A stretch of DNA of 64,000 bases from an uncultured Verrucomicrobiae bacterium (GTDB lineage: Bacteria; Verrucomicrobiota; Verrucomicrobiia; Palsa-1439), in contig CAWEWF010000010.1 in NCBI GenBank assembly GCA_963812605.1, positions 128,001 through 192,000 on the forward strand, in the 5' to 3' direction. The number at the start of each line of letters is the position of its first letter. Within the stretch, counting starts at the first letter, position 1. A program made the position numbers and the translations under genes. Under the pieces are notes generated by a model that was not told the DNA's origin, did not search any database, and saw only the letters and a program-made list of their open reading frames with translations. Shown piece by piece: positions 45,232 through 62,063 of this stretch.

Positions 45232-45621
45232 CTATTTCCCCAAAAACAGCTTGGTGGTTGTTAAAAAGTTCTCAGCATCGGCCATCAATTCTTTCAATCG
45301 CTCACAGCCCGGCGGCGGTTTGGAGCCGAAGTCGGCGTCGTGGTGCAACTGCGTGGCGCGCTTGAAACGCTCCCCGAACTCCTGGGGGATCAAACCCGTC
45401 TTCACGAATTCGCGCTGGAATTTCGCGGCGACATTGCCGTCACGGGACGGGCCGAATTCCTTCGTCGCGAGCAACGCGCACGCGCAATAGAACATCGAGA
45501 AATACACGCGGTCCGTGGCGCCGCGGCGCATCTTTTGACCGATGAGCAGACGCGCCTCGTTCAGGCTCTCGTCGGCTTGTGTGAGCCGTAAATGAATCAA
45601 GTCTTGGGCCTCGGGCGTCAC
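45232..45621 (-). CDS. HEPN-domain protein, degenerate motifs
   Basis: A.ESL.EA..L, ATDRVYFSMFYCACALL, F..EFVKTG, HHDADF (the usual form is R..ADY). Confidence 0.75.
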   Translation of the reverse strand: MTPEAQDLIHLRLTQADESLNEARLLIGQKMRRGATDRVYFSMFYCACALLATKEFGPSRDGNVAAKFQREFVKTGLIPQEFGERFKRATQLHHDADFGSKPPPGCERLKELMADAENFLTTTKLFLGK

Positions 45622-56646: not shown

Positions 56647-57885
56647 TCATAGGCCTTCCAGGACCTTCACCCCCGCCACCATTTTGCAGACGTGGACCGC
56701 GTACTTGTCGGCAAGTTGCGGGTAACGGCGCGGGTAACCGACATCCACCGCTTTTTTCAATGCTGCGACGCTTTCCGCGCGCGCCAGCGCACCAGCCGCG
56801 CCCTTGTCGCCGCCGCCGAGCATGCGTTCGCCGAGAACGCCGGGAACGGAGCGGGCGATATCGCACATCGTTTCCAGTTCCGGACCCGATATTTGGTAAT
56901 CATCGCGCAAACTGATCCCATCCCGGCGGAAGACCGCGCCCACGGCCTCGATATCTCCAGATTTCCAGGCCTCCAGCATTTGTGGGAAGCGCTGCTGGGC
57001 ATGGAAGATGTATTTGAGGCGGGCGCAAAGCTGTGGATGCGACCTTCCGTAACGGGCGACCACGCGGTGGTAGAGCGCCTGGTCCCGAATGTCGGCGAGG
57101 CAGGAGAAGCCGAATTCCTTTCCCGCGAGGGCCACAAGCTCCTCGCACTCAGCGCGGCGAATCTTGTAGGTGGATTTTTCGAGGCCGGGCCTCACGGTGC
57201 CGGTGTCGAGACCAACAATCCGAAAGTCGATGGCCTGTTTGCCCAGTGGCACGTAGCGAACGGCGCGGGTTTTTGGATCATAATGCGTCCCCATGCCCTC
57301 ACGGGCGAAGTAAATCATGATTTGATCGAGGTTGCCGCAGGGGGAGCCGATGTAATCGTTCTCGACGGCCTGGGCCATGTCGATGATCTTCATTTCGTCC
57401 GACACCGTGATGCGGTTCACTTCCAGGAATGTGAGAATCAAGTTCAGGCAGAGCGATGCCGAGCGCGACATCCCGCCGCCGGGGATGTTACTGTAGAGGA
57501 CGGCGTCGAATCCACGGACCGGTTGCAATCCGTCCCGCCGCAAAACATGGTCGACGCCATAGGGGAATCGCACCCACCTGTTCGCAGCGCCCAATGATCT
57601 TGGTGGCGGCACTTCACCGAGTTTGAAACCGACAAGGCCCTCGTCCGGGAAATTCGCGCTGCACAGGCGTACACGGTCGGTATGATTGGGCTGGTAAGCC
57701 AGCCAAAGAAACCGATCCGTGCCGACGCCGAAAAGTTCCGTGCCGTTGTAGTCGCCATGCTCGACTCCCAGGCAGAATCGGGATGAAGTGCGGCGAATTT
57801 TGCCCCCTTGAACCCGGAGTCCGGTCGCCGCAGCCAGACGCCCGAGAGTTTCCCGTGCTTGAGTGTCTGAGGTGGTGTCTTTCAT
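56647..57885 (-). CDS. Galactokinase-like GHMP kinase (divergent)
   Basis: SRFCLGVEHGDYNG, NIPGGGMSRSA, ENDYIGSPCGNLDQ, GERMLGGG. Confidence 0.8.
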   Translation of the reverse strand: MKDTTSDTQARETLGRLAAATGLRVQGGKIRRTSSRFCLGVEHGDYNGTELFGVGTDRFLWLAYQPNHTDRVRLCSANFPDEGLVGFKLGEVPPPRSLGAANRWVRFPYGVDHVLRRDGLQPVRGFDAVLYSNIPGGGMSRSASLCLNLILTFLEVNRITVSDEMKIIDMAQAVENDYIGSPCGNLDQIMIYFAREGMGTHYDPKTRAVRYVPLGKQAIDFRIVGLDTGTVRPGLEKSTYKIRRAECEELVALAGKEFGFSCLADIRDQALYHRVVARYGRSHPQLCARLKYIFHAQQRFPQMLEAWKSGDIEAVGAVFRRDGISLRDDYQISGPELETMCDIARSVPGVLGERMLGGGDKGAAGALARAESVAALKKAVDVGYPRRYPQLADKYAVHVCKMVAGVKVLEGL

Positions 57886-58784
57886 CGCGTGGCGAGAATC
57901 GTCGCGATAAGAATCTGCGTGACGCTTCGCAAGAAATCGTAGTCGAGTGTGTCCGGCGTGTCGGTGGATTGATGGTAGTGCGGGTTGCGAAACTCGGCAG
58001 TATCGGTCCAAAGGATTGCGGGAATGCCGGCCCTCCAGAAGGGCATGTGGTCGCTCCGTTGCAGGACCGGCAGAAGTTTTTCCACGCCGGCGTATACTTT
58101 CAAGCTCAGCACCGGAAAATCCGGCCAGTAGGTCTTGGCTGTTTGCAGAACGGTGTTTGCCATGGCGGTGGAATCCTTGTTTGCCAGGATCCCCAGGAAA
58201 TCACCGCGGTCTGGCACCTGGATCGGCAGGCCCGGCGGGATCGTCTGCGAGCCGGGACGATGATCACAGTAGCCGATCATCTCCAGGATATGCGCTTCGC
58301 GAACGGACATTTGCCCTTCCGCGGTAATGGTTCTCACAAAGTCGGCGCTACCCAACAGTCCGTCCTCTTCGCGGTTGAAGGAAACGAAACAAACCGGACT
58401 TTCTGAAGCATGTTCGGCCAACGCCTTGGCGCAGGCCAACAGTGCCGCGACCGCGCTCGCATTGTCGTCGGCGCCCGGGGTGCCCGGCACAGTGTCGTAG
58501 TGCGCGCCAACGAGGACACAGGCGGCGTCCGAAGAGTGCCGGGAGCGAGCGACAACATTGGCGTATTCACCCTGCAACTTTGTTTCGTAACCGTACGAAT
58601 GCAACTGGCGCGCAATCGAATGCGCTGTCAGTCGGTTGTTCTCCGATTGCAATTCGTAATGACGGGGAACCGCAAGAGTCTCGACAGTTGCGCAGAGAAA
58701 GGACGCCGAGACACCAGCCATTGCCGCCAGTATCCGGGTATCAGGCGTGGTGGGTTGCGCGTTGGCGGAATGTTGAAGATGCAT
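57882..58784 (-). CDS. M28-family metallopeptidase
   Basis: VGAHYDT, PGADDNASA, EEDGLLGS, RSDH, YHQSTDT. Confidence 0.9.
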   Translation of the reverse strand: MHLQHSANAQPTTPDTRILAAMAGVSASFLCATVETLAVPRHYELQSENNRLTAHSIARQLHSYGYETKLQGEYANVVARSRHSSDAACVLVGAHYDTVPGTPGADDNASAVAALLACAKALAEHASESPVCFVSFNREEDGLLGSADFVRTITAEGQMSVREAHILEMIGYCDHRPGSQTIPPGLPIQVPDRGDFLGILANKDSTAMANTVLQTAKTYWPDFPVLSLKVYAGVEKLLPVLQRSDHMPFWRAGIPAILWTDTAEFRNPHYHQSTDTPDTLDYDFLRSVTQILIATILATR

Positions 58785-58867
58785 GGTCAACGCGAAATCA
58801 TAGGACAGAGCGGGGAACAGTCCAAGCGTTTCGTCGAAGAGGTTATGCCTCTATTTCGAGTGACCAC

Positions 58868-58949
58868 AACCCGCATAAATGTGAATAATTTAGAAAAAGC
58901 CCGTAAACATTGACGTTTCTGCGATGCGATACAAATCAGGATTCGAGGA
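58868..58949. repeat. Repeat A, copy 1 (82 nt)
   Basis: AACCCGCATAAATGTGAATAA...ACAAATCAGGATTCGAGGA, nearly identical to 59300-59381. Confidence 0.9.
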
Positions 58950-58996
58950 CGAAAATGCTCTCGCATGGCTACATTGTAGCAAAACTGCTAAAGAGA

Positions 58997-59170
58997 TTAT
59001 TTTATAAAAAGGATTATTTCATGTAGATTGCTCAAATAATAGCTCTGTATTTTATAATCAGCATCATACTCAAAGGCAAAATACCAACCAGCAAACTCTG
59101 TGGGTATACTATCGCTTCCAGAGGGGATCGGCTTCCTAAAATGAATATTGTAAGGCAACTGTTCAACAGG
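58997..59170 (-). pseudogene. 5'-truncated AT-rich coding fragment (cargo 1)
   Basis: Open 57-codon frame PVEQLPYNIHFRKPIPSGSDSIPTEFAGWYFAFEYDADYKIQSYYLSNLHEIILFIK*, preceded by an in-frame stop next to repeat B and lacking an ATG. Confidence 0.45.
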
Positions 59171-59203
59171 CTAACCAAATTCTGCTCCCGATCCGCCAGC
59201 GAA

Positions 59204-59292
59204 GCAAGCCAAACGAGCCGACCGCCTGAATCTTCAAAAAGCCCAATAAAACCGCTATGCCGATGCGTACAAATGCTTACCTACATTTCCAG
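59204..59292. repeat. Repeat B, copy 1
   Basis: GCAAGCCAAACGAGCCGACCGCCTGAATCTTCAAAAA (37 nt identical to 59811)...CTACATTTCCAG. Confidence 0.9.
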
Positions 59293-59299
59293 TGATCCG

Positions 59300-59381
59300 A
59301 ACCCGCATAAATGTGAATAACTCAAGAAAAAGCCCGCAAACATTGACGATTCTGCGATGCGCACAAATCAGGATTCGAGGA
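59300..59381. repeat. Repeat A, copy 2
   Basis: Direct repeat of 58868-58949. Confidence 0.9.
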
Positions 59382-59420
59382 AAGGAAATGGCTGGTTAGG
59401 TCACATCGTGCTCAATCTAA

Positions 59421-59714
59421 TCACCAATATGGGTCGAAAAATGGCATAGAAAAATACCACAATAAAAAAATGGCTACGAAATTCATGAGTGCGCAAGCGA
59501 AAGCCACCTCCAGTGCTTTGGCAATCGGCTTACGCAATGCCAAGAGCGAAGCTGTAAACGAACTGGTAAAAAACATGGCAATCCATGACCAAGGCGCACC
59601 CATGTCAATGACGTGCATCCAATATTCACTCATAAACCATCCCCAAAGCCAAATCCCATAAAAGACGATGAGGACTATCGCATTGTATGTCAGGAGACGT
59701 TTCATGTGGCTCAT
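59421..59714 (-). CDS. Small 3-TM AT-rich membrane protein (cargo 2)
   Basis: MSHMKRLLTYNAIVLIVFYGIWLWGWF...PFFDPYW; GAGGAAG RBS; its start overlaps the stop of an upstream remnant (ATGA). Confidence 0.65.
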   Translation of the reverse strand: MSHMKRLLTYNAIVLIVFYGIWLWGWFMSEYWMHVIDMGAPWSWIAMFFTSSFTASLLALRKPIAKALEVAFACALMNFVAIFLLWYFSMPFFDPYW

Positions 59715-59810
59715 GGCTTCCTCTTGGCAGCACCTATTATTCCATAATATAGCACGGTTTTGCTCCAACCTCTCTCTTCCTCTCTCAAACGCTCCTGCTC
59801 CGCCCGTTTC

Positions 59811-59897
59811 GCAAGCCAAACGAGCCGACCGCCTGAATCTTCAAAAACCCCTGCAAAACCGCTAATCGATGCGGACAAAGCTTGCCTACATTTCCAG
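59811..59897. repeat. Repeat B, copy 2
   Basis: Direct repeat of 59204-59292. Confidence 0.9.
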
Positions 59898-60003
59898 GTT
59901 GGAAGGGCACGCCTCGCAGAGGCGTGGCTACACCGCTGGACAAATGCTTATCGACATTTCCAAGTTGGAGAGGCACGCCTCGCAGAGGCGTGGCTACACC
60001 GCT
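59873..60003. repeat. Tandem 65-nt duplication: tail of repeat B + GTAG-type REP
   Basis: GGACAAA..CTT...ACATTTCCA.GTTGGA..GGCACGCCTCGCAGAGGCGTGGCTACACCGCT occurs twice. Confidence 0.85.
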
Positions 60004-60096
60004 GGCGTCAACGATCCCGAACGGCCACGACCCTTCGACTTCGTTCAGGACAGGCTCCGCGTGGCCCTCCACATTTAAGATACTACTACCGCCGGC

Positions 60097-61210
60097 TTAC
60101 TGTATGACTTGTGCGCGGTAGAAACGCTTGGGTTGCGTCGTGGCGTTGGTGTCGATGACGGTGACGATGCCACCGGTACCGACGAAGATTGCTGCTAAGG
60201 GTCGTCCACACGCCGGTCACGAGGTCAGTGGCGCTCTGGACGAGATAAAGCCGATTCGAAGCGGTGCATAGGCCGATGTGGATATCCGCGCCTACCGGGG
60301 CGATATTGGTGATCCTCAGGTCAGGTCCAAGCTCGAAGTTGATAACGCTATTGATCCAGGCGGCGTGGGACGAAACACGTGAGCTATAAAAACCGGTGGG
60401 AATATCGGCAGATTGATTCGGGAAGAACTGCCAACCCCCTGCGCCGTTGGCGATATAAAGTCCGCTCACGTCCATGATGGCACCTTGGAATTGCGTGTTG
60501 GTTGTCCCATCGAGGCTGAATGGTCCATCCACCGCATAATGGATCCCCGCCAATTTCCACGTGGAACCGTCTTGGATAAACATCGCGCCACTGGAATCTC
60601 CGACGGAGAGGTCGCACTCATTGGTGATCCCGTTGCGATCAAAGTTGGGCTTTAGAAACTGGCCGAGCGATGCGTCCGTGTAAATCGTGGAGACGATGTT
60701 TTCCCCCCAGCGGACGACTCCATCTGGCGTTCCCCATTCCCAACCCTTGAGCCGAGGGGGGCTGCCTGCGGTGACAGAATTGCCCCGTTGGGTGCCCCGC
60801 CCGATGACGACGCAGAGTTTGTTCACTTCGTTCGAGTTCGTATAGAGCGGAGCGTACCGTGGAAAGGTGTTGGCCACCTGCCAGACGCGCAGGTCGGAAT
60901 TGGGACAATCCCAAAACGCAACCGTTTGGTAGAGGAACGGAACAGCATTCATTTGAAAGGGATCGCCGACGTTACCGCCGACATGCTGTGCCGCGAGGAA
61001 AAAAGTCGGGGCGATGGTGGTCCCCATGTAGCTTCCCTGCCAGATCCCTTCATACTGCCAGCCGCTATTGGTCAGCGCACCTGTCGGAGCCGTGGTGTTG
61101 AATGTCACGTTGCTGGTGGACTCCAAAATGACCGCTTCGCTTCGTGTCGCAAAGGATCCGAGTGCCAAAAGGCAGAACAACGCCCACGCCCTGCTAACCC
61201 ATGAGTTCAT
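60097..61210 (-). CDS. Secreted trypsin-like serine protease with a C-terminal Verrucomicrobia-type domain, frameshift near 60180
   Basis: Signal peptide; triad motifs LAAQH, DLRV, GDSSG; tail Y.VQSATDL...W and KRFYR in the shifted frame. Confidence 0.8.
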
Positions 61211-61560: not shown

Positions 61561-61650
61561 GGAGAGGTGGCAGAGTGGTCGATTGCGGCGGTCTTGAAAA
61601 CCGTTAGGCGCGCAAGCGTCTCGGGGGTTCGAATCCCTCCCTCTCCGCCA
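61561..61650 (+). tRNA. tRNA-Ser(TGA)
   Basis: GGAGAGG acceptor stem, anticodon loop CT-TGA-AA, long variable arm, GGTTCGAATCC, encoded CCA. Confidence 0.95.
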
Positions 61651-61797
61651 GTCTTCGCTGGCAGCAGCTACGACTCGGCACGCCAGTCTTCGCTGGCAGC
61701 TTTGGTGACAGCGAAGACTGTCTCGCCGTAGCGCAAGCGTAGGCGGACAAAGAGAGGTTACCGTTGGCTGCCAGCTACGACTCGGCACGCCAGTCTT
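61646..61797. repeat. Repeat cluster between tRNA-Ser and the GIY-YIG gene
   Basis: CGCCAGTCTTCGCTGGCAGC twice, AGCTACGACTCGGCACGCCAGTCTT twice, and the hairpin CAGTCTTCGCTG...CAGCGAAGACTG. Confidence 0.8.
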
Positions 61798-61799
61798 TG

Positions 61800-62063
61800 A
61801 TGGGAGAAGCTTTGGTCGGGCAATTCTATTACGTTTACATCCTTCAGAGCTGCAAGAATTCGAATCGCTTCTACACCGGGTTTACGGAGAACTTCAAGGA
61901 GCGACTTGCCGAGCACAACGCGGGGAAGTCACTTCACACGAAAGCACTTCGTCCCTGGCGCATCAAGACTTGCATTGCCTTTACTGATCGCAAATCGGCC
62001 CTGGACTTCGAGCGTTATCTCAAGACCGCATCGGGACGAGCATTCGCCAAAAAGCGTTTGTAG
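61800..62063 (+). CDS. Stand-alone GIY-YIG nuclease
   Basis: YYVYILQS, FYTG.T, RL.EHN.G, RPW, A..FERYLK..SGR. Confidence 0.9.
   Translation: MGEALVGQFYYVYILQSCKNSNRFYTGFTENFKERLAEHNAGKSLHTKALRPWRIKTCIAFTDRKSALDFERYLKTASGRAFAKKRL

Follow-up and report, generated by a model that had tools for sequence, protein, structure and literature searches.

Conserved flanks around unrelated small genes suggest a scarcely known type of mobile gene cassette in an uncultured Verrucomicrobiae bacterium

We analysed a 64,000-nucleotide (nt) stretch of DNA from a contig of an uncultured Verrucomicrobiae bacterium (hereafter the window, C10:128001-192000) and in it a short array, at positions 58846-59901, in which two copies of a repeat A and two copies of a repeat B enclose two unrelated inserts. 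A family of such cassettes exists, with unrelated cargos in the same flanks and units at several loci, and it suggests a type of mobile gene cassette that is little known. We would put at about one in two the probability that the two units of the window are members of a lineage-specific family of single-gene cassettes which carry their own 5' expression module, lie behind co-directional host genes and are exchanged via their conserved flanks. The sequence-only reading of this DNA, which had taken the array for a cassette-capture or exchange locus, was right in what it observed and is supported in its cassette idea; for a portion of the conserved flank, a signal for expression is the more convincing reading.

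On the plus strand the order is A1-cargo1-B1-A2-cargo2-B2, with A of about 110 nt and B of about 120 nt each present twice in the window. By BLAST, A1 (58868-58949) matches A2 (59300-59381) with 91.6% identity over 83 nt (E 1e-25), and profile searches widened the two copies to 58846-58957 (nhmmer E 3e-29, and E 3e-28 with a second A model) and 59278-59386; in our feature list A2 runs from 59278 to 59390 (A-model E 1.5e-30). B1 (59184-59292) and B2 (59791-59897) are 84.4% identical over 109 nt (E 4e-26), and a 37-nt core starting at 59204 and 59811 is wholly identical in both (59204-59240 and 59811-59847). Taken at its full length on the plus strand, B1 covers 59150-59299 and is made of a leader, a B-head, a B-mid and a B-tail, and B2 covers 59782-59901. 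The inserts, cargo 1 of about 234 nt (58950-59183) and cargo 2 of about 409 nt (59382-59790), match neither each other nor any other part of the genome, and their GC content is 0.36-0.47 in windows of 200 nt, compared to 0.57-0.63 in the flanks. The BLAST identities and the GC values thus bear out the paired A and B repeats around two unrelated AT-rich inserts that had been described from the letters. A degenerate B tail had also been noticed before the first A, and indeed 58848-58898 and 59280-59330 can be aligned with 80% identity. The B tail contains a 13-nt sequence, CCTACATTTCCAG, that is located at the boundary between B1 and A2 (59280-59292) and also at the end of B2 (59885-59897); we refer to it as the junction core. 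Degenerate copies resembling it are present before A1 (58848), at 59951 and at 60066. The short junction motifs have no extra copies in the genome outside the units.

Both inserts had been said to code on the minus strand. This holds for cargo 2, whose minus-strand open reading frame (ORF) at 59421-59717 is convincing: it encodes 98 amino acids (aa) with two hydrophobic segments, has a GC content of 0.45 and a purine-rich GAGGAA before its ATG, and we found six homologues of the product among 5.8 billion proteins, the best at 90% identity. For cargo 1 (58958-59149 between the widened modules) the claim did not stand as well, since its minus-strand ORFs, of 53 aa (58997-59158, TTG start) and 48 aa (59032-59178), are weak and no homologue of them was found in the large protein database; cargo 1 may be a remnant. 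Contigs of two other runs break at its edge, at 59147-59150.

Altogether, twelve cargos were found inside the same flanks, in this genome, in four genomes of the same genus and on four soil metagenome contigs. They are mutually unrelated: among 11 of them no pair gives a BLASTP E below 0.09, and the twelfth has a best E of 1.8. The GC content of 11 cargos ranges from 0.34 to 0.52 versus 0.583 for the genome, at least one hydrophobic segment of 19 residues is present in nine of 11, and most cargos look like membrane or secreted proteins, as far as their predicted products can tell. None of the 10 small cargos reaches the curated cut-off in Pfam, PHROGs or NCBIfam, all three of which were scanned, and a protein atlas gave no function for the cargos; the only cargo with a family match is a methyltransferase, and that of locus L027 lies outside these family-library scans.

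We then compared 41 genomes of the family, namely this genome, 17 others of its genus and 23 from outside the genus (genomes, contigs and loci are cited below by our own labels, such as G004, C6 and L028). In this genome, contig C6 has a third A-cargo-B unit, flanked by trpE and a TPR gene and with a cargo of 181 aa, and a diverged B stands ahead of the methyltransferase gene on contig C1, next to a tRNA fragment. BLAST with the B/A junction gave matches in five of the 41 genomes, this one and four of the 17 others of the genus, and in none of the 23 from outside it. The A model found A in this genome and in G006 only, to which BLAST adds G004 and L028. Among metagenome contigs, a 21-mer scan gave five loci, four of them with clear units: one complete in L028, two in tandem in L029, one in L027 and one in L026. 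A 19-mer scan of a genome collection gave 13 stretches, of which L022 alone matches B over its full length and 11 match the surroundings of the seed only; L021 and a similar metagenome locus, L030, have a 46-nt match to B. We found no match to A or B in plasmid and phage collections, and scans of viral contigs gave one chance match and otherwise none.

The A copies are as alike across genomes and loci as they are inside the array of the window. A2 is as near to the metagenome copy of L028 (85%) as to its neighbour A1 (84%), and A3 is nearest to the copy of G004 (76%), which occupies a different locus. We inspected seven sites by eye: in every one a co-directional gene precedes the unit, and in four of them the B end falls within about 10 nt of the stop codon of the preceding gene. 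The search for A and B in the genome and its relatives, which had been proposed as a check, thus showed the flanks enclosing other unrelated cargo at other loci. The cassette idea was to be given up if A and B occurred only here, if they were scattered singly with no consistent cargo between them, or if they matched a known IS/MITE end or the attC model; our results mostly run the other way, as A and B are not confined to this array and enclose other cargo elsewhere, but partial and cargo-less copies of B occur too. Beside the methyltransferase gene on C1 (3200-4300, L035), which encodes a 241-aa S-adenosylmethionine (SAM)-methyltransferase and has a diverged B with a core-like piece, lies the 3' fragment of a tRNA, not a whole tRNA by ARAGORN; this layout resembles the edge of an integrated island near the end of the contig.

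The array is an insertion of about 1.26 kb relative to three close relatives. Its neighbours on the minus strand are a gene for an M28-family peptidase (57882-58790; Peptidase_M28, E 2e-30), which lies downstream in gene direction, and a gene for a 374-aa protein without family match (60086-61210), which lies upstream and has its stop codon about 10 nt from the right junction. The two genes are only 18-72 nt apart in G004, G006 and G012, versus about 1,280 nt here, so that the same site is empty in three close relatives, in line with the earlier suggestion of a cassette locus with variable content. In the alignment with the closest empty site, that of G004, homology is lost at about 58845-58857 and regained at about 60066-60095; with the relatives it is regained on the right side at about 60095-60116. 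At the left junction (58848-58860, plus strand), where the homology with G004 ends, we observed a core-like sequence, CCTCTATTTCGAG, a degenerate B-tail end. On the right, a dispersed repeat resembling repetitive extragenic palindromes (REP) is followed by the junction CCTCCACATTTAAG at 60066-60079 (whole feature 60006-60079, plus strand). The empty site of G004 has one core-like sequence, CCGGACCTTTAGG; when occupied, as here, the site shows such copies at its left and right ends and also between the units. The C6 site gives a similar picture, with 42-154 nt between trpE and the TPR gene in G002, G005 and G017 versus 1,024 nt here; its intergenic sequences are too diverged for exact insertion ends. 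In addition, a contig of another run (X4) carries A1 and cargo 1 in different flanks, with a match that begins at 58857, inside the core, and a contig of run X2 is 100% identical to B1 from 59150 onward, with other sequence to the left.

In the cassette reading, a unit read in the direction of its cargo would have B at its 5' side, then one low-GC gene, and A at its 3' side, so that A1 and A2 would be the 3' modules, downstream of minus-strand cargo, and B1 and B2 the 5' modules of cassettes 1 and 2. Units would sit immediately after host genes of the same direction, either alone or joined head to tail. Whole units would enter new sites by recombination at the B-tail end, in the core CCTACATTTCCAG, by means of an enzyme encoded elsewhere in the genome, and the core-like copies at the ends and between units would be the expected trace of a circular unit recombining with a secondary site. 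The cargo of a resident unit could also be swapped by recombination within the conserved A and B. Indeed, one and the same B-to-GNAT junction is found with four unrelated cargos, in G006, L029, L027 and G004, and with a remnant only in G012. Four cargos at an identical junction suggest that cargo is exchanged through recombination within the conserved flanks, alongside or instead of the insertion of whole units. The gap in question, between an operon for an extracytoplasmic function (ECF)-type sigma factor and a GNAT acetyltransferase gene (L003, L004, L005, L027, L029), is a hotspot, where relatives and metagenomes have from none to two cassettes; the same gap of the present genome (L034, C1:503853-507191) holds an unrelated small ORF on the plus strand, without A or B. 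A more specific proposal would be a gene-capture system of soil Verrucomicrobiota distinct from integrons, in which promoter-bearing single-gene cassettes integrate head to tail via the B-tail/A-head core, with the recombinase elsewhere, and provide rapidly exchangeable small envelope proteins, for example for immunity or surface masking; we consider it tentative and rather doubtful.

The B repeat is composite. Its cargo-proximal 45-65 nt were found, with a B model built from sequence only, in 10 of the 41 genomes, including two other genera, with at most six copies per genome. The alignment of 26 B heads shows two conserved blocks, TTTGGCTTGC and then AGCAG(A/G)AT, and the hexamers TTGCnn and CAG(A/G)AT are 17 nt apart in the copies counted (B1, G015, G022 and L081); in B1 these are, on the minus strand, a -35-like TTGCTT at 59202-59207 and a -10-like CAGAAT at 59179-59184. 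For 23 of 28 B-head copies, the start of an ORF of 60 aa or more lies 25-110 nt downstream, versus 14 of 28 when the test is made in the reverse direction. The cargo-proximal half of B is an older, family-wide motif, for which a promoter or leader is a better reading than a recombination site, and we infer that the B head is a putative promoter or leader for a sigma factor. Reading B as coding was tried and rejected: one frame is open across the core, but no start is conserved, stops and frameshifts differ among the copies and the core is invariant at the nucleotide level. In G022, which belongs to another genus, we observed two tandem genes for small membrane proteins (L077, C29 313-1547), each with a 58-nt upstream module (91% identical) that holds the B-head motif; a shared 3' module was not found. 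These genes follow two others whose products have PEP-CTERM-like tails, as read by eye.

It is possible, as a first alternative, that promoters are simply reused and that the units have no dedicated mobility. B would be the promoter and leader of a small regulon for envelope proteins, A and the B tail would be passengers, and the whole would spread by segmental duplication, transfer between strains and homologous recombination, with neither a site-specific enzyme nor a recombination site. Such reuse agrees with a B head that is family-wide, built of two blocks and set at a fixed short distance from start codons, with the tandem genes of G022, which have the upstream module in common and no 3' module, with cargo changes behind a fixed B-to-GNAT junction, which fit homologous exchange, and with the lack of a linked recombinase at the searched loci; near-identical promoters before unrelated genes are among the cases described in PMC3575422. 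It leaves unexplained the invariant 37-nt core, the identity of 82-85% over about 120 nt between loci, the conserved 3' module and the clean entry of whole units into unrelated intergenic sites, which in relatives are empty. Homologous recombination requires that the new site already share homology, which the empty sites do not.

The cassette reading calls for an enzyme that acts in trans. Genome-wide, we detected 12 Phage_integrase (PF00589), five Y1_Tnp and two Resolvase matches, all of them outside the window, in agreement with the earlier remark that no integrase or transposase lies nearby. Housekeeping genes account for the ORFs between 42.7 and 64 kb (no search by name was made for cas genes), and the genes upstream of the array are that of the 374-aa protein and a tRNA-Ser. 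Several results weigh against the cassette reading. No Phage_integrase, Resolvase or Y1_Tnp match is found in the window or near the C6 unit, and in none of the genomes searched did we find an element ended by A and B that carries a recombinase or transposase. An integrase adjoins a B copy at one of 23 further loci (21 distinct sites), in G015, and no B lies near the homologue of that integrase in the present genome. The low-depth contigs of the runs, none of which covers the left junction (58762-58838), showed no circle or excision junction. The unit ends are ragged, with B cut at three different points and some left ends keeping a longer remnant of the B tail, and the copy number is low. The core repeats are short and degenerate, so that site-specific entry remains something that we infer. 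As for the expression module, both hexamers fail a scan with the sigma-70 consensus and B2 is without the CAGAAT block. Finally, the A alignment has a 7-bp stem before a T run, but an intrinsic terminator in A had to be rejected, as its hairpins are no better than those of shuffles in four of five copies and a terminator scan found none.

A recombination site at the B/A junction, served in trans, had been part of the cassette-capture idea. It is plausible but unproven: a circle junction, a matching recombinase and a consistent recombinase neighbour were not found in our searches. A scan for a Xer/dif-like site in the head of A, made with two half-sites, gave nothing useful. The G015 locus with the integrase (L092, G015:C16:121000-135000) is rich in mobile elements; besides a DNA methylase that has a restriction-endonuclease domain, it encodes an IS1595-type transposase and a tyrosine recombinase of 449 aa, whose gene is convergent with a 139-aa membrane ORF that appears to be driven by a B head.

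As a second alternative, the units could be non-autonomous derivatives of transposable elements (mobile insertion cassettes, or end pairs of the IS200/IS605 or IS110 type), with A and B as the ends and the transposase elsewhere, which we regard as unlikely. The ends are indeed unlike and in direct orientation, units are found at several loci, and a 14-nt motif, CGATGCG(N)ACAAAT, is common to A and B, once in each and on the same strand, with a score that 0-6 of 500 shuffles reach; we also considered an extended paralogy of A with the B tail, of which only this motif holds up. The five Y1_Tnp matches and the REP-like hairpins adjoining the array would suit such an origin. It is opposed by the absence of terminal inverted repeats, as none of nine inverted pairs has one arm at an A end and the other at a B end, and by the absence of end hairpins; shuffled sequences fold better than the junction does, and neither the B and A alignments (0 and 1 compensatory pairs) nor that of the 26 B heads (-1 kcal/mol) show a conserved RNA structure. 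Furthermore, no transposase lies between A and B in the 41+41 genomes searched or in the metagenome loci, and the plasmid and phage collections are silent. When target-site duplication was tested, we obtained 13-nt core-like copies at both ends, which are degenerate and resemble the B tail of the element itself. Four of the five Y1_Tnp matches are over the cut-off, and these proteins could be REP-associated transposases. The REP-like hairpins, at 59908-59992, fall outside A and B, and the core is absent from REP hairpins elsewhere in the genome.

An integron-type array without integrase (CALIN), with B+A as a long attC, is very improbable. The genes are co-oriented, low in GC, promoter-proximal and separated by a repeated spacer, and one exact RYYYAAC occurs after the stop codon of cargo 2, with a 6-of-7 GTTRRRY in the B core. 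These two are unpaired and at about chance level, as we estimate that about 0.5 core-site matches are expected per spacer. When the 207-nt B+A junction was folded, the minimum free energies, -13.3 and -17.1 kcal/mol, were weaker than those of shuffles on both strands (z +1.41 and +1.70). Because the junction does not fold, it is not an attC; we rejected an attC-like junction also for want of an imperfect palindrome and of a long conserved stem. The spacer, of about 250 nt, is far beyond the usual range of attC sites, and the window contains no integron-type integrase. The earlier reading, which saw no attC boundaries, is supported in that the junction is not an attC, and the Rfam search proposed with it found no family at 58.8-60.1 kb, with E up to 1.

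That the tandem arrangement is an artefact of metagenome assembly can hardly be maintained: the assembly has 15 contigs and a completeness of about 90%, and repeats are prone to misjoins, but a separately built contig from a public run (X1) spans cargo1-B1-A2 (59061-59336) with 0 mismatches, a second one links the REP region to the gene of the 374-aa protein (59914-60133), these runs being possibly the source of the assembly itself, and the tandem design is repeated in the unrelated metagenome contig L029.

Around the array, several other features were observed. Two tandem 66-nt units (89% identical, 59877-60005, plus strand) each consist of a B-tail-like piece and a REP-like hairpin, CACGCC..GGCGTG, and contain the second core-like copy, at 59951-59964. 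Contigs C2, C4, C8, C12 and C14 carry copies, at 85-92%, of the roughly 50-nt dispersed repeat beside the array. The 374-aa protein, without match in Pfam or NCBIfam, has a signal-peptide-like start, is kept in the three close relatives and is absent from two more distant ones. Further along, behind the tRNA-Ser (61561-61650), come a cluster of direct repeats of 35 nt and inverted repeats (61630-61806) and then an ORF of 99 aa for a stand-alone GIY-YIG nuclease domain (61764-62063); the stretch 61561-62063 is variable, because in two more distant relatives the tRNA directly follows the M28 gene. At 45232-45621, between gyrA and gyrB, lies an ORF of 129 aa with a HEPN domain, which may belong to a small pair of toxin-antitoxin type.

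Gene cassettes that move without a recombinase of their own are best known from integrons, where they are defined by attC hairpins and are mostly promoterless. The units described here are like integron cassettes and CALINs in being single-gene units, in forming co-oriented tandem arrays, in their unrelated and often unknown cargo and in the conserved element between cassettes. They differ by the lack of an attC hairpin and of an IntI in the window, by being scattered behind different host genes instead of being gathered at one attI, and by the promoter-like module that they seem to carry. Mobile insertion cassettes and the Xer-dependent dif modules of plasmids are also small passenger-gene units without their own recombinase, moved in trans and bounded by inverted repeats or inverted Xer sites. 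The small size, the lack of a recombinase and the conserved bounds are common to them and to our units, whose flanks are direct and unlike each other and in which no Xer-type site was recognised. In contrast to elements derived from IS200/IS605 (PATE) or to REP/RAYT systems, there are no subterminal hairpins at the ends of A and B. If the cassette reading is true, a second cassette design, which lacks a hairpin and has direct flanks that are unlike each other and a promoter-like module of its own, would add to the known routes by which bacteria shuffle small accessory genes, and would explain how orphan genes for small envelope proteins come to lie between the housekeeping genes of uncultured soil bacteria. 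The conserved B head would also be a candidate promoter for a phylum with few genetic tools.

Promoter reuse, or putative mobile promoters, has been described as highly similar upstream sequence before non-homologous genes, within and between genomes (PMC3575422). The B head is comparable to the cases presented there, being a near-identical upstream sequence before non-homologous genes; compared to that description, our units have in addition a conserved 3' module and a junction, and they are gene-containing units inserted at sites that are empty in relatives. By its design, the family seems closest to the recombinase-associated acquired interbacterial defence (rAID-1) clusters of gut Bacteroidales, which are defined by a gene for a XerD-like recombinase at their 5' end and by cargo of immunity type and contain up to 31 genes (bioRxiv 10.1101/471110). 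Unlike the clusters as that source presents them, the units here have no adjacent recombinase, come as one or two and belong to a different phylum, and their cargos match no immunity family in general libraries, among which the immunity-specific profiles of that work are not included. Like the rAID-1 clusters as described there, the units of this Verrucomicrobiae lineage combine co-directional genes of low GC content with repetitive intergenic sequence, in a layout that suggests ongoing gene acquisition.

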